From IMG/VR virus record IMGVR_UViG_3300042327_000405, positions 297-64,296 of that record: 64,000 bases of DNA, one strand, 5' to 3'. Below are positions 13,461-44,709 of the stretch, in pieces. The notes under the pieces are model-generated. The model searched no databases and was not told the DNA's origin. It saw nothing but the letters and a program-made list of their open reading frames with translations. The stretch comes from a virus (lineage: Duplodnaviria > Caudoviricetes). Position numbers and translations under genes: made by a program. Every line of letters starts with the position of its first letter. Position 1 is the first letter of the stretch.

Positions 13461-14095
13461 TATACCTCTTCCAAAGTAACTGAGACATTCCAGTAGTCAA
13501 AATTAGTTCCTCTTTTTTCTACAGAATAGGTAAAACTAGAAATAAACATCTCAACAATTTGGTTGTATTGAGAAAGGTGGTCATAAGGATCTTCTGTTCC
13601 TTTAAAAATATCTTTTCTGTCGTATGCAAGGAATACCCAAAAAGAACCTTTATGTGAGTCATACCATTCAAGCATATCTGCTCCACCAGCACCAGAGTCA
13701 GTTGTGTATGACTTTGATAAAGATTTTCCAGTGGTTGTATTAAAATTAGGATTGTGGTCATGTGATCGTGAAGGAATCATGCTCCAACTAGTGCTAAGTT
13801 TCATTTTATCTGCAGTATGATATGATCTCATACGGCCATTGATCATTCTCTCCCGTTTTTCAATACGCTCATCTGAAAAATCTAATGGAGATCTATTATC
13901 GTCTGTAAGCATTAAAAACTGATCTACAGTGTTTGGATTTGCATCTGTCAGATCTGCACCAACTTCTAATCCGTATGGGATGTACAAACCATTTATCAGG
14001 GTTCCAGAGTTTTCAGACCAAAGCATGCCACTAGGTCTATTATACTTTTTGCGACTCTGCATATAGGTAAATCTTGGGTCTGGACTATCTGGCAT
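13460..14095 (-). CDS. Distal-tail-like minor tail protein
   Basis: Immediately downstream of the tape measure; ends WNVSVTLEEV. Confidence 0.7.
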   Translation of the reverse strand: MPDSPDPRFTYMQSRKKYNRPSGMLWSENSGTLINGLYIPYGLEVGADLTDANPNTVDQFLMLTDDNRSPLDFSDERIEKRERMINGRMRSYHTADKMKLSTSWSMIPSRSHDHNPNFNTTTGKSLSKSYTTDSGAGGADMLEWYDSHKGSFWVFLAYDRKDIFKGTEDPYDHLSQYNQIVEMFISSFTYSVEKRGTNFDYWNVSVTLEEV

Positions 14096-17000
14096 TTATT
14101 CCAATCCCCCTAATTCTTCTATCTTCTACTTGCTTGATTGTTGACATTACTGCCTGTGCAATTTCATTTGGATTAGCATCTGTTCTTGCATTAACTGTTA
14201 ATGTATATGTATTATTATACACTGCTGCGCCAGTTGCATCACCATTATTAATCTTTTTGAGATTATCTACCCCGTAAGAATCCACAGCATACTTGCTCAT
14301 AATAAACTCTCCTGGGGTTAACATTGCTGGAACAATGTCTGTACCTCTAGCAAATCCTCCAGCAGCAAAATATTTTGGAACCATACCACCAGAAGACATA
14401 AGTCCGATTGCCTTAAGTTTGCTTAATACTCCTTGTGGGGTGGTCCTTGATGGCGGGACTACTGCTGGCTTAAAGGTTGGTGCATTATTTTGTCCATAGT
14501 TAAAGTTAGATGGCGTTGGTTTATTTACTGCAGGTGGTTTCGCTGCAGGTGGTTTCGCTGCAGGTGGTTTCGCTGCAGGTGGTTTCGCTGCAGGAACTTT
14601 TGCTACTGTTGCTGTTGCTACTGCTGGTTTTGTTTCTGAGGCTGGGGCACCAACAACTTCTGCAGGTGTTGGTGGAGTGTATGCAGATCCAAGGATTGGA
14701 TCATTTCCAACTGTTTGTTCAGCAGCAAAGGCTGCCTTTAAATCAGGAACAGTTGCAAGAGCAAGTTTCATTGACTCTATGAATTTGTTGCTATTTATCA
14801 TAGCAAGATCTACTTCATTCTTAATCTTTTCCCAAGCATCTCTTGTATTTCCAAGAACAGTAAGGCCTGCAATATCTTTGTCTAGTTGTATTTGTCTTAA
14901 ACGAACAAACTCTTGTGCTGGTTCAATTCTGTCTTCTTCAATTTGAAACACTTCATCTTGAAGAGTTTTAATTTCTTTTTCAAGTTCTTTTCTAGTTTTT
15001 GTTTTCCAGAGAGACTTGTCGGTACTGCCCATTTTGTCAACTCCAGTTACTCCATCTAATTCATATTGTCTGGACTGCTCTATAGCATCCTTTTGCTTTG
15101 TAACCGCATCGGCTGCCTGTTGTGCTCGCATGTCTTGCGCTGCTCGTGCTGCTGCAGCGATGTCTCCAGATGTTAATGCTTCTGCAAGTGTTAGTTGACC
15201 CCTTTGCTGATTAGAAATAGCAGCATTGGCTTTTTCTACTTCATCAAGAGCCTTAATTCTTTCGTCATATTTGTCATTAATCTTTTGCTCTTGGTCTTCA
15301 ATAGCCTTTAGTGCTGCTTCTTTGTCATCAACTTTATACTGAATTAATGCAATGTCTTCTTGTGCTTTTTTCATTACATCTTCTTGTGATTTTGTATCTA
15401 ATTTAAATTTAATATTAAGGGCTGTTTCTTGAACATCAAAAGCCTCCATTGCATTGCCAAACCCGTCATTAAACATATCTTGCATAAATTCAATAGTACC
15501 TTTTAACTGTTTAAGTCTTGTATCAAAATCAGTTATCAACTTGTTTAACTCAGCCTGTGCAGTCGCAATAACTTCTTTATCAGCACCTTTTTTAATTAAA
15601 CTATTAACTTTTGATTGCTGAGTGCCAATTTCAGTTTCCATCAGGCTTAAGTTTTCATCAGAATTAATTGCTCTTGCAGTTGAGGCACTATATTTCTTTC
15701 TAATTCTTGCCTCTTTAGTTCTATCTTTTTTGAATTGATCTATGTCTGTTCCTACTCCCTTAACCGCTGCTGATCTAAGTTGTGCCTTAGTTAAAACATT
15801 ATAATTCTTTGCTAAAGTAGCAACTGACTTTGAATTTTTTTCCATAGCAATTGCTTGAGCAAGTCCAGCGTTTTCAACCATTGCGTAAGCATCTGCAACT
15901 GGAACTCCTATAGAAGACAACTTGGCAAAGGCTATTGCTTGATCTTCAATCACGTTAGTTTCTGCTTCTGTCTTTGAATTAAAGTCTCCCATTGCTATAG
16001 AGTTTAACGCTTCTTGAATGTTTTTGGCATCCTTCTTTAAACCAATAATGTTATCCTTATTGTCAAACTCAAATAAAGACCTCTTCTTGCTTTCATACTC
16101 TTTTGGATCCATTCCAACTATAAGAGAAATGAGGTCTTCACTTCCACCTATCTTTCTTATATCATTCTCTATACCGCTGAAAGCATCAAGGGTCTTCTTG
16201 CCTCCAAACAGGCCATCTAAAGCCTTACGAGAGGCACTCCAGCCCTCTGTGACCTTAATCTGGTTCTTACGTACATCCCTTAGTTTTTTGACTAGATCAT
16301 CTAGGGGTGAGGACTGAACCTTACTTCCCCCGCCAGTTGGAGTTGTTCCTGTTGGAGCCTTTGTGTCTACAGCAACACCTTCAGTTACAGCCTTAAATCC
16401 TTGATCTTCTTTGTAGTGAGCAACTTGTGTTGCAATAGGAAGTGATGCATAATCTGCTCCACCATATGCTTTTCCTTGAATCATTGTAGTTGGAGATTTT
16501 TGCCAATCAATAAAGTCTTGAGTTGCTACTATCTCTGGATCTGGAATATTAATTATAGACGCAATAGTCTGTGTGTAAGTCTTTTGCTGATCTTCTGTTA
16601 GAGTATTAAAGTATGCTTCATCAAAAGCAGCAGTGCCCTCAATGTTTGGAATAATGTTATAGACAATTTCTGCAGTTAGGTCTTTGTTTCCTTCAATGCT
16701 GTCTAACATTGTGTTTAACTTTTCATATTGCTCTTTATTCTTTGGGTCTACATAGTAACTAACCAGAACATCAGATGGAATAACTGCGTTAAGGTTGTTT
16801 AACTTAATCATATTTTTTGTAAAATCAAGAGCATCTGAATCTTTTTCAAATGCTTCAACCTTTGTAACAAACTTGGTCTGTACTGTCTTATTAACTACGC
16901 CTTTAGAATCAAGAATGTTTTGGGCTGCAACACCAATTGACTCAGAAGTTGCACCGCTAAACTTAGTAATAATATTCATCATCTTTGGAGCAATATCTTT

Positions 17001-20000
17001 GTTGTCTGCTGCTAGACCTAAAAGACTTCTAAATACTGCTGGAGGTATATCTCCACTTGCCATCTTTGCCTGAATTAAAAATTCTTGTCCGCTGTCAATA
17101 AGGCCATCTTTTCTTAGGTTTGCTGCTTGCTGATCAACAACATCTATATATGCTAACTGATTAGGATCGTCTTTATATTTTGCAGTAACAGCCTTTTTCA
17201 TACCGCCCATCATTGCTTCTTGCATAGCGCCAGCGCCATTGTATTGTGTTACAACGTCTGCCTGTAGTTGTCCTTGTGCTGCTGTTAATTTATCTCTTTC
17301 ACCAATATACTTAGTTTGCATTTCTTCTGCTTCATTAATTTTGCCTTGAAGTTTTAGTTGATCAATTTTCTTTTGGTAGAACATATCAAATGAATCTAGC
17401 ATTTGTTTGTTTTGTTCCATGGCGATCTTGGAATCTACTGCATAGGCTGCTCCAAGTGCTCCTGCTTGTTTTGCAAATCTTTTTGTTGCAAAATATCCTC
17501 CAATTGCTCCTGCTGCTGCGCCGATGCCACCACCAATAATGGCACCAACAGCGGTACCCAGAATTGGAACTACGCTTCCTATGGCTGCCCCAAGTGCTGC
17601 TCCACCTAAAGCAGCGGCTCCAATTCCTGCTTTTTGAACAGTACTTTGTCCAGCAAGTTTTGTCATTGTTCCTGCGTTGTTTACATTTTTAGCACTTGCT
17701 TGCATTCTCTTACTATTTTCTGCAACCATATCAGTTCTTACCTTTAAAGGATTTTTTTCTAAGTCTTCTCCATTAGGTCCAAGCACTTTTTCCATTTGAG
17801 CAATTACTCTAATTCCCATAGACACATCTCCTGCTTGTCTTGCAGCATTCATTGCTAAACTTTTTGCTTGATTTATATCCATTGCGCCAGACATAACTGA
17901 AGTAGTTAACTGGCTTGACAAATCTCCAACTGCTTGCCCACCTTTTCCAGCAGCATTTTGTTCTGCAAGTCTTTTTGTTATTCCCTTGCCTTCTTCTGTT
18001 TGAACAAATGCTTCTCCATAAGTTGTTTTTCCAGTTGCTGAAGGGGTCATATTGAAAGAGTTTTTCCTCTTAAGATCCATCTGTTCTGACGCTGTTACTT
18101 TACCGCTGAACTTTGCTATAGCATTAACAGCAGAAGTAGATCCTCTAAATTTTTCATTTTCTTCTAAAACTTTATTTGCTGCTGCATCAAAGGCCATTCT
18201 TAAAGCAACAAATGATCCAACGGTTGCTGCCAAACCAACTGCAACTGCGCCCATAGGACTCTTTAACATTGGAAGAACCATAGAAAGACCCATCAAAGGC
18301 ATCATAACTTTTTGTGAAATTTCTCCAACCTTGCCTGGTGCCATAGAACCAACCATCGCTGCGCCTGCTGCAACTCCAAGTCCACCAGCCATACCCATTC
18401 CACCCTTGCCTGCTGCTCTTGCTTGCTGTCTTTTACTTATCATTGATCCAGCCTTTAGTTTGGCTTTATCAAGTCTTGTTGGAGTAAAGTTTCCACTTGG
18501 CAATAGAGGGCCTTGCATTGGTCCTGCAGGTTGGCTCTGGAAAATCTTTTTTTGATATCCTACAGAGTTGGCTAATTTAGTTCTTTTTTCTTCTTGACGA
18601 CGCAAAGACTTTGCATCTGCATCCATTGGTCCAGTGCCGTATAGTTTAGTTCTTGATGCTGTTATCTTTGCTTGTGTTCTTGCTTCTTCTCTTTGACGCT
18701 TTTCCATTTGACGGCGTACAGATTTAGCGTCAGCATCTATTGATCCCCCGCCATAAAGGGCAGTTCTAGATGCTGCTGCTGCAGATTGAGATAGCGTTGT
18801 TCCAATTGTACTTCCAACTGTCTTTGCTTCTGCTATAGAGGACTTTGCTCCAGCAACTACTGCTCCCGCTGGGTCTACAAGTCTTTTTACTCCTCTTGGA
18901 TAATTACGAGCAAGATCTTGTTCTGAAATATTAATATCTGGAGCATCTGCTTTTCCAACAATTCTTCCTTTAGGACCTTGACGAACTGCCTTGACTACGC
19001 TCTTTGGAGCAAGTCTACTATCATCTGTTTTACCAGAAGTTGATTTTAAGTTTACAGTATTTGGTTCTGTAGGTATTGGCTTTATATTGCCATTTTTATC
19101 TTGAAGTACTTCATCTGGTTTTACCAAGATTGAACGGTGGAAGTGATAAACTTTTTTCCAATCTGCTTCTAGGCCAGCCTGAAGTCTCTTATACATGTCC
19201 TCATAAACCTTTTTGGCTGGGTCTCCATCAGCAAGTTTAAAACCGTCTATAGTCTTTCTTAGTTTTGGAAGTGTTTTGTTGATCTCATCCTTTATTGTTT
19301 TTTCATATTGGTCTGCAGACTTAATTCCTTGAGGAATATCTGCTGTCGCATTTCCAAACCAGAATGGTGATGCATTTGCGTTTGCTCCTGGAACACCCTT
19401 CAAGTTGTGCATTGCAATTTCTTGCATAGATGGAAGCCCTGCGGAATAAGATCTTGTGCCAGATGCCTTATCAAATACACCAGCAGCGCCAACATCTGCT
19501 ATAACATTTCCTCCCAAGTTTCCTTTTTTAAGATCTTTGTCTGCACGAAGGCTTGACGCTACTAGTTGTCTAAAATAATCTCTTTCGGTAAATGTCTTTG
19601 GCATTGTATTTGGATCAAACCTTGGATCAAACTTAGATTCTAAAACAATAACTTTTCTCTTTTTATTAACATCTGGCTCATCAATATCTGTAGGGTCAAT
19701 CATTGTTGTGATTTTTTGTTTTGGCGCTACCAGTCCGTGAACATTTCTTGCAATCTCTGTTGCTCTTTTTTCTGCTATAGCATCTAACTCGCTTAGCATT
19801 GGTTTTACAAATACCTTTGAACCATCTGGCTTTGTGTATACTCCACCAATAGTAGACATAAAATTGCTTCTTCCAGAACTTTGTGTTTCCTGCTTACCAA
19901 AGTTTGTTGGTTTCTTTGCCCCATAGGTAGTTTGAGATGCTTCAATTGCAACTGCTCTTAATTTTTCTTTATGCTCCATTGCTTTTTCAAGATCAACTAA

Positions 20001-22967
20001 TTCTGGAGCCTTTAAAGGAACTGATATTTTTGTTTTATCTTTTGATTTTGCGCCTTGAGAAAACTTAGGAGTTGTTCCCGATCCAAGTCTATTCATGTTT
20101 ACAGTTGTTGGCTCTTTAATTTCAAACCCATCATAGATGCCTGGATTAAGTGTTACAGTTCCAGAGGATGTTACTGTTTTCCCTTGGCTTTCTGAAAACC
20201 TAGTCTTAATTTCATATCCTGCAATATAAGGTTTTCCAGTTGCTGGATTTATTGTTGATGCTGCTTTGTCAAGTATTGCCTTACTTGTTTCTGGAGTTGT
20301 TCCTAGTCCTTGCCCCATATTAAATCTAACATCTGCTGCATATAGTTGTCTAGACTTTATATATCCTGGATCATTTGGGCTTATTCTTTTTGGAAGTTCC
20401 TTTTCATATAAATGTTTCAGTAGGTCATCATTAACCATTTTTGAAGGAGATTCTCTAACTAACTTTAAAAGTTCTCTGTCTAGTGCTTCTGCTTGTACAG
20501 GAGACATTCCAGATGGATGCCATTTTGATGGACCATTTTTTAGCCATTCGTCTATAAATGCTTGTTTAGGAATTCCTTGTCCGTACATTTTTTTATTGAT
20601 CTCAAGAGGGAAATCAAACATCAATCCATGCTTTACGGTTGTTACTGCTGGCAAACCTTGTGACAAAAGAACCTGTTGCATTGTTATAAGTTTTAGTCTT
20701 TGATTCTCACTCATTTCTGGATGAGCCTTGAGTATGTCTGAAATTAATTTAGGTTCGCTTTTACCTCCTACGTGAGTTTCACTCATTGCAACAGGTTGAG
20801 CGTTTGTTGTACCTCCATTAAATCCTTGTACCGTTCCACCTGCAACCATATGAGCAATGAAAGGTCTATTCGCTGGATCTTGTGCAGCCTCTGCTGGAAT
20901 TACTGCTTCTCCAGGAGTAAGTACTGATGGAACAGTATCTTTATTTCCAGTTCCTGGAACTCTTGTTGTTCCAGTAGAATATTTAAGTTTAGGCATTCTT
21001 TTACCAGCAGGTGGGCCAGTAAATCCTGCCTGTGCTGCAATGGCTCTTCTATATGCATTTGCCAACATGTTAACTGCTGTGGTTTCAGATGTAAAGGTTT
21101 GCTTAAGTTTAGTGTGAACTTGATCAAGAGATGCTGCTACTGCTGAGGCTTCTAGTTGTTCTTTAGTTAAATAGTTTGTTTGCTCGCCTAAAACTTTACT
21201 AGCGTTTCCTGTTCTGTTGTACATAGACTTCATCCCTGCAAACATTTTAATTATGTTAGCAACAGCGTTTGCAATCAGACCAAATGTCATAAGTAGAACT
21301 GGACCTATTCCTGCAACTGCAACAGTAAAGATTGTTAAGAATTTTTTACTACCGTCTCCTAGACCATTAAATTTTTCAAGAATCTTTCCAACAAACTCAA
21401 CAATAGGTGTTAGTGCTTTTAAGAACTGTTCTCCAACTGGAGCAATAGCCAACTTAAGATCTTCCATTGACTTTTTAAATTTATAAGTTGTTGTATTTTG
21501 AATCTTATCTAATTCTCGCTGTGACAAGATTGCAAGTTCTTCTGTGGTTGCTTGTGTTAGTTGAAGAACTCTGTTTGCTTGCGTACCCTGGGCTACTACG
21601 TTTTGAAATAATGTAGAAAGTCTTGAGAACTGAAACTTACCAAACAGTTGCTCAATAGCACGAGCACGGTTAAGGGGATCAAGAGTGTCTAGTGCCTGTG
21701 CAAATCCAACAACAGTTGCTTTGATGTCACCCTTATTGGACTCAACAATTCCTCGAATGTTTACACCAAGGTCTCCAAGAAATGCACTGGCTTTTGCAGA
21801 AGGATTAATTAATGAAGCAAGACCAGACTTAAGTGCGTTAGCGCCTTCTGATGCATTGATTCCACCTTCTTTCATTGCTGTAAGGAAGAATGCTAAATCT
21901 TCTACATCTCCACCAAGTTGTTGAATAACTGGTCCAGCCTTTGGAATTGCTATGGTCAAGTCTTCAATTGATACAACGGTCTGGTTTTCAACTGCGTTAA
22001 GGAAGTCAATCTTTTTAGCAAGATCTTCTGTTGCTACTCCAAATGCATTAGTTACTGATATTGTTGTTTCTAATGCTTGTTCTTGTTCTACTCCACCAAG
22101 AACAGCAAGTCTTGTTGCTTGTGCAACTTGAGCCATAAGGGCTGCGCCCTGTTTACCCATTGCTGCTGCATCTGCAGCCATTTTCATTGTATCTTCTATT
22201 GCAACGCCGTACTTAGTATATTCTTTTGCAAGACTTTGAATCTGCTTAATCATTGCATCGGTTTCTTCTGTAGATGTAAACATTTCTCCGTATACACGCT
22301 TAAATCTAATTGCCTGCTCTTCAAGTTTCATGAATGTCTTAGAAGCAGTTACTCCAAGCATTGTCAGTGGAACTGTAAAACCAACCATCAACTGGCGACC
22401 TGCCCACTGAGTATTCTTACCAAAATTTAGAAGGTTGGTTGATCCTTGTTTTAATAATTGATTGAGTAGTTGCTGTCTTTGTGCAGCAATGGCAGTTTGT
22501 GTGCCAAGATTTTTCATGTCAAGAGTTAGAGGTCTTACTGCAATTGACTGTAGGGCTCCGTTGGCCCCTCGACCCATCTTAATATATTGGGTCTGTAGAT
22601 CCTTTACACGCTCTCGTGCAACTTTATTTAATGTGTCAAACTCAGATCTAAATAGTCTACCAAAAGTTTTTGTTGCAGCGCCAGTGTATCTAAAGTATTC
22701 TCTTGAGGTTAACTTATTTCTTTCTAAGGCATCAGTAAAAGACTCTGTACTCGATGTTACTGTTCGCATTGATGCTTGGAATTGTCCAGTAGCATTTATG
22801 CTGTTCATCAAGTTTTGTGCTTGATTTGCTGCCACTGCTGATGCTGCAGTGCCAGACTTTGCCATCTGTGTATGGAAGGCTGATATTTGACGTTGTAGAA
22901 GTTTTAGACTTGCTAAAGCATCGGACGTATCAATATTTACATGAATATTGGATTCTACATCAGCCAT
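14085..22967 (-). CDS. Tape measure protein (2960 aa) with inserted domains
   Basis: Very long, Ala-rich helical protein with a TP901-type N-terminal region, hydrophobic segments and coiled coils; follows the tail chaperones. Confidence 0.95.
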   Translation of the reverse strand: MADVESNIHVNIDTSDALASLKLLQRQISAFHTQMAKSGTAASAVAANQAQNLMNSINATGQFQASMRTVTSSTESFTDALERNKLTSREYFRYTGAATKTFGRLFRSEFDTLNKVARERVKDLQTQYIKMGRGANGALQSIAVRPLTLDMKNLGTQTAIAAQRQQLLNQLLKQGSTNLLNFGKNTQWAGRQLMVGFTVPLTMLGVTASKTFMKLEEQAIRFKRVYGEMFTSTEETDAMIKQIQSLAKEYTKYGVAIEDTMKMAADAAAMGKQGAALMAQVAQATRLAVLGGVEQEQALETTISVTNAFGVATEDLAKKIDFLNAVENQTVVSIEDLTIAIPKAGPVIQQLGGDVEDLAFFLTAMKEGGINASEGANALKSGLASLINPSAKASAFLGDLGVNIRGIVESNKGDIKATVVGFAQALDTLDPLNRARAIEQLFGKFQFSRLSTLFQNVVAQGTQANRVLQLTQATTEELAILSQRELDKIQNTTTYKFKKSMEDLKLAIAPVGEQFLKALTPIVEFVGKILEKFNGLGDGSKKFLTIFTVAVAGIGPVLLMTFGLIANAVANIIKMFAGMKSMYNRTGNASKVLGEQTNYLTKEQLEASAVAASLDQVHTKLKQTFTSETTAVNMLANAYRRAIAAQAGFTGPPAGKRMPKLKYSTGTTRVPGTGNKDTVPSVLTPGEAVIPAEAAQDPANRPFIAHMVAGGTVQGFNGGTTNAQPVAMSETHVGGKSEPKLISDILKAHPEMSENQRLKLITMQQVLLSQGLPAVTTVKHGLMFDFPLEINKKMYGQGIPKQAFIDEWLKNGPSKWHPSGMSPVQAEALDRELLKLVRESPSKMVNDDLLKHLYEKELPKRISPNDPGYIKSRQLYAADVRFNMGQGLGTTPETSKAILDKAASTINPATGKPYIAGYEIKTRFSESQGKTVTSSGTVTLNPGIYDGFEIKEPTTVNMNRLGSGTTPKFSQGAKSKDKTKISVPLKAPELVDLEKAMEHKEKLRAVAIEASQTTYGAKKPTNFGKQETQSSGRSNFMSTIGGVYTKPDGSKVFVKPMLSELDAIAEKRATEIARNVHGLVAPKQKITTMIDPTDIDEPDVNKKRKVIVLESKFDPRFDPNTMPKTFTERDYFRQLVASSLRADKDLKKGNLGGNVIADVGAAGVFDKASGTRSYSAGLPSMQEIAMHNLKGVPGANANASPFWFGNATADIPQGIKSADQYEKTIKDEINKTLPKLRKTIDGFKLADGDPAKKVYEDMYKRLQAGLEADWKKVYHFHRSILVKPDEVLQDKNGNIKPIPTEPNTVNLKSTSGKTDDSRLAPKSVVKAVRQGPKGRIVGKADAPDINISEQDLARNYPRGVKRLVDPAGAVVAGAKSSIAEAKTVGSTIGTTLSQSAAAASRTALYGGGSIDADAKSVRRQMEKRQREEARTQAKITASRTKLYGTGPMDADAKSLRRQEEKRTKLANSVGYQKKIFQSQPAGPMQGPLLPSGNFTPTRLDKAKLKAGSMISKRQQARAAGKGGMGMAGGLGVAAGAAMVGSMAPGKVGEISQKVMMPLMGLSMVLPMLKSPMGAVAVGLAATVGSFVALRMAFDAAANKVLEENEKFRGSTSAVNAIAKFSGKVTASEQMDLKRKNSFNMTPSATGKTTYGEAFVQTEEGKGITKRLAEQNAAGKGGQAVGDLSSQLTTSVMSGAMDINQAKSLAMNAARQAGDVSMGIRVIAQMEKVLGPNGEDLEKNPLKVRTDMVAENSKRMQASAKNVNNAGTMTKLAGQSTVQKAGIGAAALGGAALGAAIGSVVPILGTAVGAIIGGGIGAAAGAIGGYFATKRFAKQAGALGAAYAVDSKIAMEQNKQMLDSFDMFYQKKIDQLKLQGKINEAEEMQTKYIGERDKLTAAQGQLQADVVTQYNGAGAMQEAMMGGMKKAVTAKYKDDPNQLAYIDVVDQQAANLRKDGLIDSGQEFLIQAKMASGDIPPAVFRSLLGLAADNKDIAPKMMNIITKFSGATSESIGVAAQNILDSKGVVNKTVQTKFVTKVEAFEKDSDALDFTKNMIKLNNLNAVIPSDVLVSYYVDPKNKEQYEKLNTMLDSIEGNKDLTAEIVYNIIPNIEGTAAFDEAYFNTLTEDQQKTYTQTIASIINIPDPEIVATQDFIDWQKSPTTMIQGKAYGGADYASLPIATQVAHYKEDQGFKAVTEGVAVDTKAPTGTTPTGGGSKVQSSPLDDLVKKLRDVRKNQIKVTEGWSASRKALDGLFGGKKTLDAFSGIENDIRKIGGSEDLISLIVGMDPKEYESKKRSLFEFDNKDNIIGLKKDAKNIQEALNSIAMGDFNSKTEAETNVIEDQAIAFAKLSSIGVPVADAYAMVENAGLAQAIAMEKNSKSVATLAKNYNVLTKAQLRSAAVKGVGTDIDQFKKDRTKEARIRKKYSASTARAINSDENLSLMETEIGTQQSKVNSLIKKGADKEVIATAQAELNKLITDFDTRLKQLKGTIEFMQDMFNDGFGNAMEAFDVQETALNIKFKLDTKSQEDVMKKAQEDIALIQYKVDDKEAALKAIEDQEQKINDKYDERIKALDEVEKANAAISNQQRGQLTLAEALTSGDIAAAARAAQDMRAQQAADAVTKQKDAIEQSRQYELDGVTGVDKMGSTDKSLWKTKTRKELEKEIKTLQDEVFQIEEDRIEPAQEFVRLRQIQLDKDIAGLTVLGNTRDAWEKIKNEVDLAMINSNKFIESMKLALATVPDLKAAFAAEQTVGNDPILGSAYTPPTPAEVVGAPASETKPAVATATVAKVPAAKPPAAKPPAAKPPAAKPPAVNKPTPSNFNYGQNNAPTFKPAVVPPSRTTPQGVLSKLKAIGLMSSGGMVPKYFAAGGFARGTDIVPAMLTPGEFIMSKYAVDSYGVDNLKKINNGDATGAAVYNNTYTLTVNARTDANPNEIAQAVMSTIKQVEDRRIRGIGINAR
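14528..14594. repeat. Perfect 15-nt tandem repeat (about 4.5 copies) encoding KPPAA in the tape measure C-terminus
   Basis: ctgcaggtggtttcg x4 plus a partial copy. Confidence 0.9.
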
Positions 22968-22985: not shown

Positions 22986-23312
22986 TTAGTTATTTGCAAG
23001 GTTGCCAAGTAGTGATGCGTCAGAAAGTTTAATTCCTGATGCCTCTTCGACAATCTTGTATACTGTTGGAAGGTCTAGGTTTTCTTCTAGGGCTTCCTTG
23101 TCTTCTGCCAATTCTGGCTTGTATTGTTTCATTGCGATTTGAACACAGTCCATAAGTAAGTCCATAGACTTTTCGTTATCATCTGCAACTTTTGCAATGT
23201 CTTCAAACTTCTTCATAAACGGACGAAGTAGTGAAATTTTAAGTGGTCTGACCTTGATCTTAGTACCATCAATTAGTGTTACGGTCTTCTCTTCTGTTGT
23301 GGCAGTTGCCAT
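22986..23312 (-). CDS. Tail assembly chaperone, short (G-like)
   Basis: Directly upstream of the tape measure; SD AAGGAGG; paralogous to the N-terminus of 23368-24048. Confidence 0.8.
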   Translation of the reverse strand: MATATTEEKTVTLIDGTKIKVRPLKISLLRPFMKKFEDIAKVADDNEKSMDLLMDCVQIAMKQYKPELAEDKEALEENLDLPTVYKIVEEASGIKLSDASLLGNLANN

Positions 23313-23367
23313 TTAGTCCTCCTTATAAGGTTTAGTCAATTATACCATAGCGGAGCGTTATTTTTGA

Positions 23368-24048
23368 TTAATCGTAAACCTCATAGTCTAGCCCCATTCC
23401 AATTCCAAACCCCGCTCTTTCGGCGTTGGCGCCCTGCAATGCAAGAATATCTCTTCCATCTTGCGTTTTCCCTCCACTAAAGACTCTAGCCTTCATGTCT
23501 TCCCATTCATTTCCACTTCCAGAGTTCTTATCTAAATCTACCCCTTGCATCGCAGCAACAAATTTTTTATCACTATAGTCTAATTCTCTTTTTATTTTTA
23601 ATGTGGCTGTCAGTTCTTGCATTGACATTGATGATTCTAGTTGATCATAGTCTTTCCATATACCGATTAAAAAAACCTCTGCTTCTAATTTTGCTAAATC
23701 TAATGTGTCCCATGTGGATCCGCTTTCAACTGCCTGATCCTTAACAGTATCTTCTGACTTTTGGTTAATTTTAATTCCCGCTGCTACATCAATTACTTCA
23801 TATATGGTTGGCAAGTCAAGGTTATCTTCTAGATCTTCTATTGTTTTAATTGATGGGCAATACTGTTGCATTGCTATTAAAGCGCATTTGGCCAAGACTG
23901 ATATTGATTCATCATCTGTTTTTGCTTCTTTTATTGTTTCAAAAGTTTCTAGGAATTCTCTTAGATATTTTATTTTTAGTGGAGCAGCAACAACTACTCT
24001 ATCGTCTACTAATGATATTTTTTTTGTGTCATATATTTTAGTTGCCAT
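23368..24048 (-). CDS. Tail assembly chaperone, long (GT-like)
   Basis: Start revised to MATKIYD, 6 nt after TGGTATACT; N-terminal half matches the short chaperone. Confidence 0.75.
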   Translation of the reverse strand: MATKIYDTKKISLVDDRVVVAAPLKIKYLREFLETFETIKEAKTDDESISVLAKCALIAMQQYCPSIKTIEDLEDNLDLPTIYEVIDVAAGIKINQKSEDTVKDQAVESGSTWDTLDLAKLEAEVFLIGIWKDYDQLESSMSMQELTATLKIKRELDYSDKKFVAAMQGVDLDKNSGSGNEWEDMKARVFSGGKTQDGRDILALQGANAERAGFGIGMGLDYEVYD

Positions 24049-24063
24049 TATATAAGTATACCA

Positions 24064-24096
24064 AACAGAAAGGCCCAACCCCGAAGGATTGAGCCT
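24064..24096 (-). terminator. Intrinsic terminator after the major tail protein
   Basis: AGGCTCAATCC-TTCG-GGGTTGGGCCT followed by TTCTGTT. Confidence 0.85.
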
Positions 24097-33088: not shown

Positions 33089-36000
33089 TTAAACTGGATC
33101 TACTACGACTTGGCTCCAATTTACGTCTGAGTACTGGGTATACTTGTAATTGCCAAACCTCAAAACCTTGTCATCATCTACTATTATTTTATTTGTTCCC
33201 GTATAACTCTTATAAACTTCAGACGGGTCAACACCATAATAACTGGTTTCTGATAAAACAAGAACCTTGTTCCAGTTAAATGAACCAGGATTCCAAAATT
33301 TCCAATCTAAATCAGTAGAATTAAGAACCTTAACTCTAAGCCAAGGCCTTTCAGAAATATTCTGAACCTCCTGAAGATTTGTTGCCTGGTAGAAAGATAT
33401 GTTATTAAATAGTAGTGGTCCAGTTAGCCTAATTGCTCCCTCAAAATATGAGAAGTCTAGGCTATCTGCAAAACTAATACCAAGGAATCCCCAGTCTTGT
33501 AAAGTGACAACTGGCTCTTTGACAATCTTTCCGTTCCAATAAAATCCTATTCCATTTTGAACTAAACCAGTTTTTGCGTCAATTGCATAAATTTTTGCTC
33601 GCCTTCCACTTGGATCGCAAGCAACAAGGTAAAACTTAATGTATGAGCCTTTACTTTCTATTTCAAAAATTTGTGTTGGAGCGTATGGGAAATAGTCTCC
33701 ATCAAATCTAATAGCAAGTTGCATAGCAATAACTTTAAATCCTTCTGCTCTACTCTGATTGACTGGAATCATAAGCCCTCGATTAATAAGGGGATCATAA
33801 ATTCCTTTTAATTGAATTCCACTTGTCTTAGTTAAATAAAGATAAGGCGATGATGCATTATAAATTGAAAAAGGATTATTCTTTTTAAAATTATAGTAAA
33901 TACCATTTTTTGTGTAAGGGTATATAGGTGTCCCAAATCTAGTACCAATAGGACTTGCGTCCGACTCATTAAGCGCTTGAGATGCATAAGACATATTTTT
34001 AATACTTACATTATTTGTTTCAGAATTCTTTACATTAATATCTATGTGTGTTACTATTGATAAATCATTAAAATCAACTCCTATAGGAGGATATATAATC
34101 ATGTTATCTACAACTTCATACTTTGTTGTCATCCAGTCTGATCCTGGAATTAAGACTCCGTTTCTTGCAGGCTTTTCTATTTTAGAAAAATAAGACGAAG
34201 TTGCATTTGCGCCGAGTTCTGTGTACTGGAATGTTATATATGTTTTTACAAGTGCACCCTCAGTATCATACCTGTAGTCTTTTGCAACCTTATTTTTTAA
34301 ATCTTCATAATCGTTATAACCAGTAAATAGATAGTTATCTAATGATTCATAAGTTCTTTGAACTGGAGAACCGTATTGATTTTCAAGATCTAAATATGTC
34401 CAGTCTACTGGATCAGTTTCTATGGCAATTGTTTTTGTTGGAATTGGATAATTAACATTAAACTGTATAAAATCAAGATCAAAATATTGATCTCCTCTTT
34501 TATCAAAAACTGATTCTGCAAAATAAGTTAGTGGTAGATTATCTTCCCAATAAGCGTTTGAAGCAACAGCAAGCGTGTATCTATTAAATAAAATACTTGG
34601 GACCAAAGTGTAACTTGCTATATGCTCAATCAAAAAGTCTTCTTCTAAAAGAATTACTCCTCCTCCAGAAATTGCTCCTGTAACAGTATCAGTTGTCCCG
34701 CCAGAGGGTGGTAAAGAGGTTGTGTCAATGCCTGCATCAATATCTATTTGTTGGTTATTTTGATAAGCAAGGAATAAGTCTTCGTTTAGTTTTGTAACTC
34801 CTATTTCATTAAACAAGTTTTTTATTTTTTGAAAATTATAATCTGTTGCAAACCCTACATTGTAAATTTTACCATTAAATGTTGCCGTATTAGTCTTATC
34901 TCCTCCAACATACATTCTCAAATCTGAAAAAGAGCCAAAAAAATCTGACACAGGATTTCCAAAGATTTCCACAAATCTAGGAATGTTAATACCTACTTCA
35001 AAAAATTCATTTTGATTTAAGACTTCAGAAGAATATAAAGTTTCTGAATTTCCATTAATGCTTATTATATATTTTAAAATGTTGTTTTCTACTTGTATTT
35101 TAAAATAATTAGAAGTATTTTCTTTTTCAATTTTAAAAAGTATTTGTGGCGTAGTTGCGTTATTTTTTAATTGAAAGCAGCCATAGAATGCTGATACAGG
35201 AGTTTTTAAAACATCAAAGTTTTCAAAGAACAAATATCCAAAGACATTGTCCCAAGAAGAGTTTGGCCTAAAAGAAAAATATTCTCTATCGTCATAAAAA
35301 AAATCTGCAGGGTTTAATATATTATTAGAAATTTTATTATCTTGAAATAGTTCTAATTTTGTTTTAGAAGAAAGGATTACCTCTGGAAGTGGGTGAGAAA
35401 TTACAGACAAAGATCTATTTGATGTTGAAATATTATCACCAAACCCTTGACTCCAAGATCCTGTTTTTGGATAAGAATAATTTGCCGTATAGTCTGCAAA
35501 TGAATAGTCAATTGCAATTGATGTACCACTATATGATGTATTAATGTTTTCTGGAATCTCAACTCCTTGACCAAAAACATATCTTCTTTTTGCAACCTGA
35601 TTAGCAACTAAATATGGATAGATTCCAACACAGTCTATATCTATTGAAGAGATATCCTCATAAGCATAAAATCCAATCCAGTCTTGATCTTTGCCATTTA
35701 CAATCTTTGATGGAAGATCTGCCGTTTCTTGAATATAGGGAATAGATATTACTTCTTCTCCATTAATTAAAAGAGAGGCATTGTCTTTTCCAACTTTTAA
35801 ATGAATAAGCATTGGCCTTGTCCATTCACCAACATAATTAGTTTTATACTCATTACCAATTTTTAAACCTACTGATGGACCGTCTACATATATTCCATCT
35901 AAAGAGTTTATTGGGCCTATAATTCTTTTGGTTTCATTAGTATAAGAATCTATTCTTATCCATGCTTCTAAAGTATATTGTTTATACTGTCCAGACTTAT

Positions 36001-36835
36001 TTAGCATTCCAACACCAGGGAATATGATAGACGGCATGCCATTGTTTTCATATAAGGTTGTATGTCCATCAGTGCCATATACTAAAGGTATTCCAGAATT
36101 TTTTGCTTTTAACATATTGTTAGAAGAAAGATAATAGGCATCTAGTTCTTGCAAGCCATAGCATTTTGCAACTAAACCCTTTTGTGGTGAAAGAGATATG
36201 GTTGAAGGAATATTTATAAGTTCCGTCCCCAAAGATGTTGAAGAAAATTCTTCTGACCACTGTCCCAAAGTTATTCCGTTAATTCTAAAGGCATTTTCTG
36301 TTTTTGAATTTCCTACAAAGTTAATTTTAATAATCAATTTAAATTCTGATTCAGTTTTAGGAATATCAAATGTTTCTGATATAAAAATCCAACTTCTATT
36401 TATTACTGAATTAAAACTTTTTAAATTAATAATATTTTGACCGCTTGTTGTATCTGTATATTGGTATCCAATTTCAAATCCAGAGACATAAGAGCCTTCT
36501 GAATACAAGTAGGATCCTATTGAGAAGGTTCCTAAATATTTGTTTAGGTCAGATGTCTTAATTGTATATTTACTTTTTAAAACTACTGATGCATTTTTAT
36601 CAGATGTGGGGTTTGCGACAACTCTTCCAACAAAACTGTCTGTGAATGGCTCACTTAGCGACTGGGGAAAACTGGAGGCCACGCCACCAACTATTTCCCA
36701 TTTTGTGGGATCAGAGATAAATCTTTTATCTTCAGAAATTAAAGAAATATAGTCAGCATTATCATCAAGTGCCCATAGCCCAATAGGGTGTTCTGCAAAC
36801 ACTTTTTCTGCGTAGAGGTTTGATGGAATAGACAT
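33089..36835 (-). CDS. Large virion structural protein (LamG/concanavalin-like)
   Basis: 1248 aa; HPIGLWALDD and YTLEAWI...LLINGEEV LamG-like patterns. Confidence 0.6.
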   Translation of the reverse strand: MSIPSNLYAEKVFAEHPIGLWALDDNADYISLISEDKRFISDPTKWEIVGGVASSFPQSLSEPFTDSFVGRVVANPTSDKNASVVLKSKYTIKTSDLNKYLGTFSIGSYLYSEGSYVSGFEIGYQYTDTTSGQNIINLKSFNSVINRSWIFISETFDIPKTESEFKLIIKINFVGNSKTENAFRINGITLGQWSEEFSSTSLGTELINIPSTISLSPQKGLVAKCYGLQELDAYYLSSNNMLKAKNSGIPLVYGTDGHTTLYENNGMPSIIFPGVGMLNKSGQYKQYTLEAWIRIDSYTNETKRIIGPINSLDGIYVDGPSVGLKIGNEYKTNYVGEWTRPMLIHLKVGKDNASLLINGEEVISIPYIQETADLPSKIVNGKDQDWIGFYAYEDISSIDIDCVGIYPYLVANQVAKRRYVFGQGVEIPENINTSYSGTSIAIDYSFADYTANYSYPKTGSWSQGFGDNISTSNRSLSVISHPLPEVILSSKTKLELFQDNKISNNILNPADFFYDDREYFSFRPNSSWDNVFGYLFFENFDVLKTPVSAFYGCFQLKNNATTPQILFKIEKENTSNYFKIQVENNILKYIISINGNSETLYSSEVLNQNEFFEVGINIPRFVEIFGNPVSDFFGSFSDLRMYVGGDKTNTATFNGKIYNVGFATDYNFQKIKNLFNEIGVTKLNEDLFLAYQNNQQIDIDAGIDTTSLPPSGGTTDTVTGAISGGGVILLEEDFLIEHIASYTLVPSILFNRYTLAVASNAYWEDNLPLTYFAESVFDKRGDQYFDLDFIQFNVNYPIPTKTIAIETDPVDWTYLDLENQYGSPVQRTYESLDNYLFTGYNDYEDLKNKVAKDYRYDTEGALVKTYITFQYTELGANATSSYFSKIEKPARNGVLIPGSDWMTTKYEVVDNMIIYPPIGVDFNDLSIVTHIDINVKNSETNNVSIKNMSYASQALNESDASPIGTRFGTPIYPYTKNGIYYNFKKNNPFSIYNASSPYLYLTKTSGIQLKGIYDPLINRGLMIPVNQSRAEGFKVIAMQLAIRFDGDYFPYAPTQIFEIESKGSYIKFYLVACDPSGRRAKIYAIDAKTGLVQNGIGFYWNGKIVKEPVVTLQDWGFLGISFADSLDFSYFEGAIRLTGPLLFNNISFYQATNLQEVQNISERPWLRVKVLNSTDLDWKFWNPGSFNWNKVLVLSETSYYGVDPSEVYKSYTGTNKIIVDDDKVLRFGNYKYTQYSDVNWSQVVVDPV

Positions 36836-39732: not shown

Positions 39733-40149
39733 TTAAAGGGTTTGCCACATGTTTGGCTGTTGTGATTTAAGTAGAGAACTTGGAGCAACATAGAAATATA
39801 GCAACTCTTGATCAATTTCTACAACTGTTGAGTTGTCTATTCCTCCACGTATGACTATTAGATCGCTTTCTTGTGGCTCTAATTTTGCAGTTTCATTATC
39901 TAAGAAAATATTTTCAATAATTTTACCCTTTTTATTTAAATAAATTTTTCCATAAAAAGATAAGATATTTTTTGATCCAGAGGTAAACTTAAGATCGTTA
40001 TTTTCCAAAAGCATACTTTCATTAGAAAACAAAACATGATATTCTTGCTTTTCATAATTTATTTTATTTTCTTTACAGATACTTTGTACAAGTGTTTTTA
40101 TTGTGCTATTAGTCTCATTTCCTAAATCAGAAACAATGTAGTTTATCAT
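39733..40149 (-). CDS. Hypothetical protein
   Basis: AT-rich ORF coupled to the GNAT gene. Confidence 0.6.
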   Translation of the reverse strand: MINYIVSDLGNETNSTIKTLVQSICKENKINYEKQEYHVLFSNESMLLENNDLKFTSGSKNILSFYGKIYLNKKGKIIENIFLDNETAKLEPQESDLIVIRGGIDNSTVVEIDQELLYFYVAPSSLLKSQQPNMWQTL

Positions 40150-40652
40150 GTTGAAACTCTCCTACCAAAAAAAACATATGGGTATACTGGTTGCTCAAAA
40201 AATTCTTTTCTCATGTTAAAATTATTTTCTGTTTGTGCTGTTCCAAAATCAAAATTTATAACTTTAGAAGCATTGGCAACTGCTTTATTTGCTACATCTG
40301 TACCAGATTCATGAACAATCTTTTTATTGAACCCATTTTTCATAAGATAAAAACAGTATACTGTTAATGCTGAAGCAATTCCCCTTTTTCTTAAATGTGG
40401 TGATATAAAGATTCTTCCAGATGCATATGTTTCATCATCTACTTTTCTCATTGTTATGTATCCATCTGGATAATCGTTTAGAATATAGTCTCCAACAAAT
40501 AAAGAACCACTTGGGTGTTTATCATTAAAATATATATAACCTATGCCATCTACATTAGGATTTGGATGATCCTTTAAAAAAACAAGATGCGACCAAGAAC
40601 CCTTTAATTCTTTTGGATGATCAAAGGATGAAGTGTCAACAACATCAAACAT
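40146..40652 (-). CDS. GNAT-like acetyltransferase
   Basis: Acetyl-CoA binding motif IFISPHLRKRGIAS. Confidence 0.6.
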   Translation of the reverse strand: MFDVVDTSSFDHPKELKGSWSHLVFLKDHPNPNVDGIGYIYFNDKHPSGSLFVGDYILNDYPDGYITMRKVDDETYASGRIFISPHLRKRGIASALTVYCFYLMKNGFNKKIVHESGTDVANKAVANASKVINFDFGTAQTENNFNMRKEFFEQPVYPYVFFGRRVST

Positions 40653-41906: not shown

Positions 41907-43166
41907 TTACGCTGACAAGTCTCCGAAGACAACCCATGTATTTGCTGCTCTCTTAAAGAGAGTTGCAGATGACCAAGTTGTACGAAGTTTTAAGCCAGGT
42001 GTTGCATTTACTGTTGTAGTTCCAGGTGTTACTGCTGCGATTGTTACCTGTCCTGCTCCAGTTTGAAGAATATCAATAGATGTTCCAATTGGATAATTTA
42101 ATACAGCATCTGTTGGAATTGAAAGAGTTATCGCTGATGCTGAATTCATTTCAATTAGATCATCTCTTTCAGTAAGTGATGAAAGTGTGTATGATGCTGT
42201 CTTTTGTGAAATTGGTGTTAAAGAATCTACCTTTAATCCAAGATTAGTTGTGACTGTTGCTGCAAAGTTTGCGTCATCACCAAGTGCTGCAGCAAGTTCA
42301 TCAAGTGTGTTGAGGGCTGCTGGTGCACCAGTTAGAAGAGCATTTACTTGTGATGTTGCATCGGCGATTGCTTCTGCCTTTGCTGTAGCAATTGCTGTAG
42401 ATTGTGCAGTAGATACTGGCTTTGACGCATCTGCTGTATTATCAACATTGCCTAGGCCTAAAGAAGTCTTTGTAACTGCTGCAACCTCTGACTTAAGTGC
42501 TAGAAGTGATGTATCTGCAATTCCATGTACGTTTGATGTATCAAGATCGTGTGCTGAAACCTTAGCATCTGCTGCTGTTCCTGCTGCTGTGATTGCTTCA
42601 GTTTTTGCTGTAGCAATTGCTGCTGCCTGTGCTGTTGAAACTGGCTTCGATACATCTTGTGTATTGTCTACGTTTGAAAGACCTACTGAAGACTTTGTAA
42701 GTGCTGCTACTGCAGTAGTTACAGCATCGGTGGCAAAAGTTTTTGTTGCAAGAAGGTCAGTATCTGCAATTCCGTGAACATTTAATGTGTCCGCTATATG
42801 GTCAGTAATATCACCTCTAAGTTCGGCTTCCATTTCAGTAAATGTTGCGTTAGCAAGAAGAGTAAGATTATCGACGTAAGTTTTTGTTGTATATAATGAC
42901 AAGAAGTCAGGATTATCTCCCAATGCATCTGAAATTTCTGATAGTGTATTTAAAGTTTCTGGAGCCATGCCAATTACTGAGTCAATTGCATTTGTAAGTT
43001 CTGTTGCATTAGCAAAATATACTAATTGAGACCATGTAGATGTTCCATTACCCATCTTAAATTTGCTTGTGTCAGTCTCAAAACCGATTTCACCTGCTGC
43101 TAAAACTGGGTTTGCAGCCGTCCATTGGGCTGCAGATCCTCTGCGCTGTTGCATTCTTGTTGCCAT
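41907..43166 (-). CDS. Tail fibre protein (Mtd/hyaluronidase-like N-terminus)
   Basis: RRGSAAQWTAANPVLAAGEIGFETDT; LNTLDELAAALGDD; GLGNVDNT repeats. Confidence 0.8.
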   Translation of the reverse strand: MATRMQQRRGSAAQWTAANPVLAAGEIGFETDTSKFKMGNGTSTWSQLVYFANATELTNAIDSVIGMAPETLNTLSEISDALGDNPDFLSLYTTKTYVDNLTLLANATFTEMEAELRGDITDHIADTLNVHGIADTDLLATKTFATDAVTTAVAALTKSSVGLSNVDNTQDVSKPVSTAQAAAIATAKTEAITAAGTAADAKVSAHDLDTSNVHGIADTSLLALKSEVAAVTKTSLGLGNVDNTADASKPVSTAQSTAIATAKAEAIADATSQVNALLTGAPAALNTLDELAAALGDDANFAATVTTNLGLKVDSLTPISQKTASYTLSSLTERDDLIEMNSASAITLSIPTDAVLNYPIGTSIDILQTGAGQVTIAAVTPGTTTVNATPGLKLRTTWSSATLFKRAANTWVVFGDLSA

Positions 43167-43181
43167 ATTTAGTTCTCCTTA

Positions 43182-43196
43182 GTACGGGCTGCGTAC
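43182..43196 (-). promoter_or_regulatory. CAGCC-loop hairpin abutting the SD of a fibre gene
   Basis: GTACG-CAGCC-CGTAC then T-AAGGAG. Confidence 0.5.
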
Positions 43197-43235
43197 GTAT
43201 TCTTTGTAATTATACCACTGAGTTCTTTCATTATT

Positions 43236-44168
43236 TTAAACTCCCCCGCCATCAAGGACAAGGTTTAAACTTGAAATATCTTGTATTGCTGCTTTAACAA
43301 ATGCTGTTGTAGCAACCTGTGTTGTATCAGTTCCCACTGATGCAGTTGGGGCGGAAGGTGTTCCAGTTAATGTTGGTGAAGCAAGTGGTGCGTATGTAGA
43401 TGCTGCGGTTGTAGAAGCAAGTTTGGCATCTAGTGCTGTTTGTGTAGGACCCGAAACTGGCTTATCCTGATCTCTTGTATTATCTACATCGGCAAGACCT
43501 ACTGAAGATTTTGTTAGTGCTGCTACTGCAGTTGAAATCTTTGTATCTGCTGCAGTACCTGCTGCTGCGATTGCATCGGCTTCTGCTGTATCAACATATG
43601 TCTTAGTTGCAACTGTTGTATCAATAGTAAATTTATCGTTGACACCATCCCACAAAAGTCCTGTTCCTGCTAGTGCTGACTGATCTACTTCTGCACCTGA
43701 AACAGCATTTGCAACATCTGTTAGTGTTGCAAGAAGTGCAGTGTTTGCAATTCCATGAACATTTGTACTTGAATTGTGTGTTGAAAGTGCTGATGCTGCT
43801 GTTGCTTCTGCACCTGACTTAGCATTATTAGCCTTTGTAGTGGCATCTCCTGATGCTGTAGAAATAGCCTCTGACTTAGCAGTTGCAATATTTGATGTTA
43901 CTGTAGAGAAAAAGTTTGCATCGTCACCTACGGCTGCTGCAAGTTCATTAAGAGTATCTAGAAGACCTGGGGCGCCGTCAATTAAATCTTCAAGTGCTCC
44001 TGCTGCATCTGCAGTAAAGTAGACCAAAGAAACCCAACGAGTTGTTCCATTACCAATCTTGAACTTATTTGTATCAGTCTCAAAGCCTATTTCTCCTGGG
44101 GATAAAATTGGATTTGCAGATGTCCACTGCGCTGCAGTGCCTCTTCTTTGCTGTTGTCTAACTGCCAT
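43236..44168 (-). CDS. Tail fibre protein (Mtd/hyaluronidase-like N-terminus), paralog
   Basis: RRGTAAQWTSANPILSPGEIGFETDT; APLASPTLTGTPSAPT. Confidence 0.8.
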   Translation of the reverse strand: MAVRQQQRRGTAAQWTSANPILSPGEIGFETDTNKFKIGNGTTRWVSLVYFTADAAGALEDLIDGAPGLLDTLNELAAAVGDDANFFSTVTSNIATAKSEAISTASGDATTKANNAKSGAEATAASALSTHNSSTNVHGIANTALLATLTDVANAVSGAEVDQSALAGTGLLWDGVNDKFTIDTTVATKTYVDTAEADAIAAAGTAADTKISTAVAALTKSSVGLADVDNTRDQDKPVSGPTQTALDAKLASTTAASTYAPLASPTLTGTPSAPTASVGTDTTQVATTAFVKAAIQDISSLNLVLDGGGV

Positions 44169-44182
44169 GTATTTTTCTCCTT

Positions 44183-44197: not shown

Positions 44198-44224
44198 TAC
44201 TTATCTTATTATAACACCCAATTT

Positions 44225-44674: not shown

Positions 44675-44709
44675 TTACTACTCCCTCTTCCAACTATTTT
44701 TATTTTTTA

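Follow-up and report, generated by a model that had tools for sequence, protein, structure and literature searches.

The window analyzed here is a stretch of 64,000 nucleotides (positions 297 to 64,296) from the IMG/VR virus record IMGVR_UViG_3300042327_000405, a viral contig of 64,296 bases with an estimated completeness of 59%. It encodes a giant tape measure protein (TMP), inside which a putative protein-kinase-like domain was found. The TMP gene occupies positions 14085–22967 and encodes 2960 amino acids (aa) in one uninterrupted frame; the domain lies at aa ~1001–1285 (19113–19967). The gene and all its parts described below are on the minus strand. The TMP matched PhageMin_Tail of Pfam (PF10145, aa 247–443, E 4.7e-23), tape_meas_TP901 of NCBIfam (TIGR01760, aa 199–555, E 4.5e-30), and TMP families of PHROGs over aa 8–667, the best of them being phrog_10030 (E 7.8e-100). 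Open reading frames (ORFs) in the position of chaperones flank the gene on one side and minor tail genes on the other. The genes upstream encode portal, protease, major capsid, and an Ig-domain major-tail-like protein, followed by the two ORFs in tail assembly chaperone position (22986–24078, minus strand), both of which match phrog_10504; the chaperones of Streptomyces phage Faust (Stanwilliamsviridae) are found in the same position. The gene order from ribonucleotide reductase through portal, protease, capsid, Ig-domain tail protein, chaperones, TMP, minor tail proteins, DnaB, and primase to DnaE is that of Faust, and the portal is 45.5% identical to the Faust portal. Thus, the profile matches, the position in the tail module, and the Faust-like order identify the gene, at the level of sequence, as a tape measure protein, and the phage as a large siphophage with kinship to Streptomyces phages. 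Judging by this kinship, an actinobacterium is the probable host. The G+C content of the contig was only ~37%. Neither a WhiB gene, a host marker, nor a tRNA was found when looked for on the contig fragment.

The initial annotation had described five kinase motifs within the TMP, and all of them were present at the claimed positions and in the claimed order: IGGVY (aa 1040–1044, 19836–19850), VFVK (aa 1052–1055, 19803–19814), AEKRA (aa 1065–1069, 19761–19775), KDLKKGN (aa 1144–1150, 19518–19538), and IADVG (aa 1156–1160, 19488–19502). The location of the domain was also correct, while its borders had been drawn somewhat too narrowly (19140–19880), the folded domain being wider. IGGVY had been taken for the glycine loop; this glycine-rich loop is probably not IGGVY alone but the whole G1032-x-S1034…G1042 stretch.

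Conservation was analyzed in an alignment of 238 homologous segments together with the window, and later in 292 distinct sequences, including translations of loci. The proposed ATP (adenosine triphosphate)-binding lysine, Lys1055 (19803–19805), located on strand beta-3 (residues 52–58 of the model described below), was present in 292 of 292 sequences. The proposed helix-C glutamate, Glu1066 (19770–19772; model helix 61–76), was kept in 291. In the catalytic loop D1145-L-K-K-G-N1150 (D-x4-N; 19518–19535), both Asp1145 and Asn1150 were invariant (292/292), as was Asp1158 of IADVG (19494–19496), the proposed DFG-like metal-binding aspartate. Further residues were almost invariant: G1042 (291/292), G1160 (289/292), G1032 (288/292, with four gaps), S1034 (287/292, with four gaps and Gly in P0234), and D1143 (286/292, Asn in six). 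In the alignment of 238 segments, about 40 more positions were at least 90% conserved despite an overall identity down to ~45%. The invariant catalytic residues and these conserved positions therefore argue for an enzyme under selection and not for a spacer. The initial annotation had named the conservation of catalytic residues in homologs as the point on which its kinase assignment could fail; K1055, D1145, N1150, and D1158 were retained in every sequence.

A model of the domain was built by AlphaFold2 (AF2) on a 39-row alignment (A2), with a mean predicted local distance difference test score (pLDDT) of 88.7 and a predicted template modelling score (pTM) of 0.87. The N-lobe of the model comprises strands 26–30, 43–46, and 52–58, the third of which holds VFVK, helix 61–76 with AEKRA, and two further strands. 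A long helix (129–141), the D-x4-N loop, short strands, the IADVG aspartate, and a helical C-lobe follow. The model thus has a bilobal protein-kinase-like fold, and the putative roles of the lysine, the glutamate, the catalytic aspartate, and the metal-binding aspartate were assigned by secondary-structure position and spacing.

In a Foldseek search of the model against PDB, the E-values were marginal: CtkA (3akk_C) came first with 1.3e-3, and no match reached 1e-3. All listed rows were nevertheless proteins of the kinase fold. The check by AlphaFold and Foldseek that had been proposed for this segment hence returned a predicted kinase-like fold. A second look at the top 1000 Foldseek chains gave scores of 11.2 for CotH (5jd9), 10.3 for CtkA, 9.8 for PI4KIIb, and 9.0 for LepB. 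Neighbors in ESM-Atlas, regarded as a lead only, belonged to LepB_N, HipA_2, PI3_PI4_kinase, and actin-fragmin kinase clusters (scores 0.91–0.93). The superfamily assignment made by the initial annotation therefore stands as far as the fold is concerned; HipA and PI3/4 kinases were named there as examples, and structure searches put CotH above both. According to the model, the domain belongs to the atypical branch of the protein-kinase-like superfamily and is nearest in shape to CotH.

Sequence searches did not assign the domain to any described family. Pfam gave only Band_7 (E 0.11, below the cut-off), PHROGs and NCBIfam gave no match to the domain, and phmmer of the domain against PDB sequences gave one irrelevant match (E 2.2). 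No kinase family of Pfam was matched by any of the 39 family members scanned, even with the E threshold raised to 10; this includes the PI3/PI4-kinase family PF00454 and also PF18640. CotH (PF08757) was not matched by the whole contig or the 39 members at E up to 10, nor by the TMP or the excised domain at E ≤ 1. There was no match to the profile of the eukaryotic-type Ser/Thr/Tyr kinases (PF00069), and the HipA families of Pfam (PF07804, PF20613) were not matched either. The A2 profile found no kinase among PDB sequences; its match to 3jqh (E 0.0024) was spurious and involved the helical tail. Comparison of A2 by hhalign with the E. coli HipA sequence gave a probability of 0.56% and was uninformative because the target was one sequence. 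Since no sequence model of Pfam, PHROGs, NCBIfam, or PDB detects it, the domain has a known fold but constitutes a sequence family that is new.

A word-indexed search of proteins of 1628–5180 aa revealed 266 clusters (90% identity, E ≤ 1e-3) having the same in-frame TMP arrangement; nearly all of them contained PF10145, and several also contained LysM. An exhaustive phmmer search of 1.84 billion representatives yielded 156 with E ≤ 1e-3, including 119 with E ≤ 1e-30, and almost all of these were proteins of 1200–4500 aa or short fragments at contig ends. A profile search of proteins of 130–844 aa, with scoring limited to the 7999 candidates that had the most words in common, gave five matches, three of them on contigs of 1.4–2.1 kb; one short match, P0225, starts with a peptide resembling the "fence" described below and looks like a piece of a TMP. 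The matches among long proteins and the near absence of stand-alone copies thus suggest that the family is essentially confined to giant TMPs. Among 50,697 GenBank phage records, tblastn of the domain gave no matches at E up to 1e-5 and only Pseudomonas phage OBP (E 1) at E up to 10, and megablast of the whole TMP gene gave no match. The A2 profile did not match Faust at E up to 1 in a run made without a positive control.

The modular organization of the TMP was evident from a map of the coverage by 258 kinase-bearing relatives, in which modules had sharp edges. The segment at aa 1–720 was covered by 80–88% of the relatives, aa 720–1000 by 32–48%, aa 1040–1280 by 96–97%, and the part beyond aa 1280 by 45–74%. 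Aa 1–720 (20808–22967) form the conserved N-terminal core, as delimited by this coverage and by the end of homology to kinase-less relatives described below; the core includes a hydrophobic segment at aa 541–577, recognized by hydropathy. Near the end of the core, directly before the variable slot, lies the fence peptide VPGTGNKDTVPSVLTPGEAVIP (aa ~660–700, 20868–20990), with LTPGE at aa 684; its pattern is …VPGxGxxDxVPxxLTPGE…. The C-terminal motif GTDIVPAMLTPGEFIMS (aa ~2865–2891, 14283–14375) is a second copy of the fence, with LTPGE at aa 2884. Among 255 kinase-bearing TMPs searched with a simple regular expression, a fence preceded the kinase by 50–100 aa in 56 and by 300–400 aa in 87, whereas in 36 it lay downstream of the kinase at a distance of no more than 50 aa.

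Between the core and the kinase, directly upstream of the latter, lies another folded domain, module X (aa ~728–1000, 19968–20786). It was found in 79 of the 258 relatives, immediately upstream of the kinase in all inspected rows. The model of module X was confident over aa ~728–965 (pLDDT 83.1), and its invariant residues are His732, Asn791, Trp808, Lys815, Asp830, Asp847, and Gly887. On the C-terminal side of the kinase, a Kyte–Doolittle scan revealed hydrophobic glycine-zipper segments at aa 1570–1593 and 1781–1824 (17496–18260), which are candidate membrane-inserting parts; the Gly-zipper matches of Pfam at aa 1774–1829 were weak and below the cut-off.

Two repetitive regions of the TMP were also seen. 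The linker after the kinase (aa ~1395–1475, ~18543–18785) contains an internal tandem repeat of two copies, spotted by eye in the translation, with the pattern …T(A/K)LYG(G/T)G…DADAKS(V/L)RRQ.EKR…. Directly before the C-terminal LTPGE domain there is a Pro/Ala-rich stretch with four AKPPA repeats (aa ~2779–2837, ~14457–14633); it has a weak Extensin-like Pfam match far below the cut-off and is covered by 22–28% of the relatives.

The presence of the kinase was analyzed in close relatives. At least 581 matches were obtained, and the best 80 were used; these are viral contigs with a TMP core (aa 230–479) 73–93% identical to that of the window. Sixty-six of these contigs were long enough to judge: the kinase was present in 31 and absent from 35, so the cassette is not needed for tail function. 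Module X was found in 11 of the 66, including one locus (L158) that has X and lacks the kinase. In 18 kinase-less TMPs, homology to the TMP of the window ends at aa ~690–820, mostly near 720, while in L158 it runs to aa 969; further on homology returns, often near aa 1340–1550. The kinase is thus an optional cassette in a variable slot located after aa ~720.

Slot segments from 17 kinase-less TMPs fell into several mutually unrelated sequence groups, in which no Pfam family scored above the cut-off and one sub-threshold match (DUF3626) was obtained. By sequence, they look like a pool of uncharacterized alternative cargo modules. The segments are ~240–1800 aa long and stand beside cores of 57–81% identity; L110, L115, L128, L131, L151, and L177 make up one group and L155 and L161 another, and further loci with kinase-less slots are L122/L124, L134, L162, L166, L169/L158, L183, and L185. 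Kinase-bearing relatives also carry other modules. A cytidylyltransferase-like domain lies right in the slot of P0097 (aa 731–856), and elsewhere in such TMPs an M23 peptidase (P0256), an OmpA-like domain (P0152), and HAD acid phosphatases (P0209, P0114) were found. The initial annotation had proposed to check whether related TMPs swap other enzyme domains at this position; P0097 has its cytidylyltransferase-like domain there, and unrelated segments fill the slot elsewhere. In P0209 and P0114, a kinase and a phosphatase-family domain occur within one TMP.

The position of the kinase also varies: among 255 long relatives, it starts at aa 700–850 in 69 and at aa 950–1100 in 126. In 115 loci having both core and kinase, the identity of the kinase to that of the window was either at least 81% or at most 57%, whatever the identity of the core. 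Locus L016, for example, is a mosaic whose core is 95%, module X 48%, kinase 53%, and ruler 79% identical to those of the window; for L005, the values are 88% (core), 93% (kinase), and 42% (hydrophobic part). Such independence of kinase and core identity argues that the cassette has been exchanged by recombination among related phages. The kinase is one of several exchangeable cargo cassettes located behind an LTPGE-type fence, after the conserved core.

The kinase fold, the invariant catalytic residues, the confinement to TMPs, the optionality, and the mosaic exchange are best explained jointly by a catalytically competent atypical kinase that is carried as exchangeable cargo in a siphophage TMP and delivered before phage gene expression; we give this explanation an even chance of being correct. 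The enzyme activity and the substrate are predicted. The retention in the virion, the delivery, and its timing would follow from general TMP biology, helped by two precedents, and the virion-delivered effector proposed by the initial annotation is in this sense partly supported. In Thermus phage P23-45, the N-terminal part of the TMP is an active virion RNA polymerase, and the authors of that study state the view that TMPs stay metastable inside the tube and, once injected into the envelope, form a DNA channel (PMC10770324). In E. coli, TurboID fused to the inner-membrane protein ManZ robustly labelled a single phage protein of lambda during injection, the TMP, and did so from the cytoplasmic side; the defense nuclease SNIPE appears to recognize siphophage TMPs at the inner membrane (PMC13190303). 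The labelling and the recognition thus indicate that TMPs are exposed at the inner membrane on entry and are a focus of host defense.

By analogy, the phage studied here may use its tail to supply the host with a preformed enzyme as infection starts. The TMP would be built into the tail together with the cassette and would leave it before the DNA at infection. The glycine-zipper segments (aa 541–577, 1570–1593, and 1781–1824) would enter the host membrane, and the kinase, lying between hydrophobic segments, would refold at or beyond the cytoplasmic face, with ATP at hand. There it would phosphorylate a host protein or a membrane lipid near the site of entry, ahead of phage gene expression.

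A broader version of this proposal is tentative. The TMP could be a modular effector-delivery device of a widespread clade of uncultured siphophages, whose cargo behind the fence would include the kinase, module X, and phosphatase-like, nucleotidyltransferase-like, and peptidase modules; the kinase would pass through the TMP's own membrane channel and hit its target at the entry site within seconds of adsorption. Possible targets are a membrane lipid and a defense or exclusion protein that recognizes TMPs at the injection site, comparable to SNIPE (PMC13190303). If so, takeover or counter-defense at the protein level would take place before phage transcription, via the tail rather than the head.

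Several points weigh against delivery of an active kinase. Thirty-five of the 66 close relatives do without the cassette. The catalytic roles are putative, being assigned from secondary-structure position and spacing, and the helix-C glutamate position (E1066) is occupied by Ser in one homolog, L046. All that represents the phage is a metagenomic contig, 59% complete by estimate. Three folded copies of ~30 kDa would fit the lumen of the tail tube poorly, which would require the domain to be unfolded or metastable in transit and to refold afterwards. There is no ATP beyond the cytoplasmic membrane, and the arrival of the domain on the cytoplasmic side is a prediction. Finally, TMP synthesis takes place in the producer cell, whose cytoplasm is rich in ATP, and this could instead be where the enzyme acts.

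This last point leads to a first alternative, in which the kinase acts late in the producer cell, phosphorylating the TMP, chaperones, or tail or host proteins, and its presence in the virion is incidental. CotH, which phosphorylates spore-coat proteins during coat assembly, would be an analog. A core role in assembly fits poorly with a cassette that is optional amid near-identical cores and tail modules, being present in 31 TMPs and missing from 35, and the cargo that shares its slot, such as M23 peptidase, HAD phosphatase, and cytidylyltransferase-like modules, is hard to tie to assembly. Moreover, for a late function in the cytoplasm a separate gene would do just as well, but the profile search of proteins of 130–844 aa found hardly any stand-alone copies. 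We therefore consider action in the producer cell unlikely.

A second alternative differs from the delivered protein kinase in the substrate only and is compatible with all data. The domain could be a kinase of lipids or of small molecules of the envelope, in the manner of PI4KII, MavQ, or LepB, acting at the entry site on a membrane lipid, e.g., phosphatidylinositol, which is abundant in actinobacteria; its purpose would be to remodel the membrane for channel formation or for the passage of DNA. The absence of PI3_PI4_kinase matches in the 39 members at E up to 10 speaks against it, and the protein kinases CotH, CtkA, and Fam20C score equally or higher in structure comparison. No lipid-binding element was identified in the domain, and neither a WhiB gene nor a tRNA that would point to the host, and hence to its lipids, was found on the fragment. 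We regard a lipid kinase as rather unlikely. The third alternative, a kinase fold with other ATP-dependent chemistry (AMPylation as in SelO, glutamylation as in SidJ) or a nucleotide-binding pseudokinase serving as a structural, length-adding element of the ruler, is quite improbable because the phosphotransfer residues are invariant, although such chemistries and pseudokinases are well known within the kinase superfamily, SidJ and the kinase-like domain of CylM were among the structural matches, and the domain adds ~285 aa to a length-determining protein.

The delivered kinase cassette was further compared with known systems. CotH, the atypical spore-coat kinase of Bacillus (PDB 5jda/5jd9, PF08757), is structurally similar to the domain, yet the identity is 10–11%, and CotH is a free-standing protein of spore-coat assembly, unlike the domain, which sits inside a phage TMP. 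Compared with Ser/Thr kinases of the CtkA/HipA type (PDB 3akk, 3akl, 3dnv, 3tpb; HipA_C, HipA_2), the domain lacks an antitoxin partner and does not form a toxin gene of its own. Type II PI 4-kinases and MavQ and LepB of Legionella also resemble it; delivery there is by secretion systems, whereas a phage tail is the predicted vehicle here. In mycobacteriophage TM4 and similar phages, peptidoglycan-hydrolase motifs are embedded in the TMP. Like the kinase, such cell-wall enzymes are accessory modules dispensable for tail assembly, and relatives of the TMP studied here carry M23 peptidase, OmpA, and LysM domains. They act on the wall outside the membrane and do not need ATP, in contrast to the kinase, whose need for ATP implies access to the cytoplasm.

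Swappable enzyme domains are reportedly also brought into the host by the capsid-packaged polyvalent effector proteins of phages, multi-domain virion proteins associated with MuF or portal proteins, that Iyer et al. are said to have described in 2017. Polyvalent virion proteins of this kind are thought to be injected with the DNA (PMC7824862). These proteins are head-borne, while the kinase cassette is tail-borne. In a Foldseek search of BFVD, the best viral match, regarded as a lead, was a protein of Mycobacterium phage Onyinye (A0A6B9L6W7, E 7.7e-5), and the best matches (E 7.7e-5 to 4.3e-4) were large phage fusions annotated as ADP-ribosyltransferase, portal, or head-morphogenesis proteins. 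Fusions of this type also came from uncultured Caudovirales, and proteins named as PI3K/PI4K-domain proteins were among the matches as well. Judging from the models, polyvalent proteins packaged in the heads of actinophages may thus carry a similar fold too. Further fusions among the BFVD matches, down to E 3.6e-2, were A0A6J5PWC9, A0A6J5S481, A0A4D6E245 (Gordonia phage GodonK), and A0A5Q2F0H9 (Gordonia phage Sixama).

The TMP of P23-45, gp96 (5002 aa), resembles the protein studied here in that an enzyme acting in the cytoplasm is fused to it in frame, and it sets the published precedent for a TMP taking a functional enzyme into the infected cell. The enzyme of gp96 is an N-terminal RNA polymerase, proven biochemically (PMC10770324), whereas the domain in the window is kinase-like, internal, located after the core, and known from sequence and model.

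Several other genes of the contig deserve mention. Two adjacent genes of cytochrome P450 (57817–58992 and 59000–60184, both on the minus strand) matched PF00067 with E 1.6e-47 and 1.8e-52, respectively, and are unusual cargo for a phage. An ORF of 1248 aa (33089–36835, minus strand), located between ribonucleotide reductase and portal, had no match in Pfam (E ≤ 1e-3) or PHROGs (E ≤ 1e-5); the corresponding position in Faust holds an endolysin and a hypothetical protein of 572 aa. No similarity was found when this ORF was compared with the kinase-like domain and module X. Two 2OG-Fe(II) oxygenase genes (48958–49560 and 50302–50898, both on the minus strand), an SLT lysozyme-like gene (48348–48965) on the strand opposite to them, and a GNAT-like ORF (40146–40652) were also identified. 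Tail-fibre-like genes (41907–46578 and 54622–55353, minus strand) encode collagen-type repeats and common N-termini and have many matches to tail-fibre families of PHROGs; the gene at 54622–55353 also matched Collagen of Pfam.

TMPs are usually viewed as rulers and channel formers. To our knowledge, the enzymes known to be embedded in them act on the cell wall, the virion RNA polymerase of P23-45 being the single published exception. Enzyme-carrying TMPs and the kinase fold were thus already known, while the sequence family, its home in a TMP, and the implied ATP-dependent enzyme delivered by a tail are new. Full-text literature searches, in which subscription journals were outside the coverage, found no paper that reports a TMP with a kinase domain. 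The "kinase domain protein" of the MinS1 cyanophage is a separate protein of 95 aa (PMC8876498) and is unrelated.

The kinase family is invisible to Pfam, PHROGs, and NCBIfam, and its carriers are now annotated merely as "tape measure protein". With 266 clusters at 90% identity, the cassette is abundant; it is also optional and exchanged between phages along with other modules, which makes the slot a natural library of candidate early-acting effectors and a possible site for the engineering of phage cargo. A conserved, apparently active kinase that needs ATP, as predicted here, implies that some portion of the TMP arrives in the cytoplasm of the host as a functional enzyme. If this is true, the tail would be a route of effector delivery at the earliest moment of infection.

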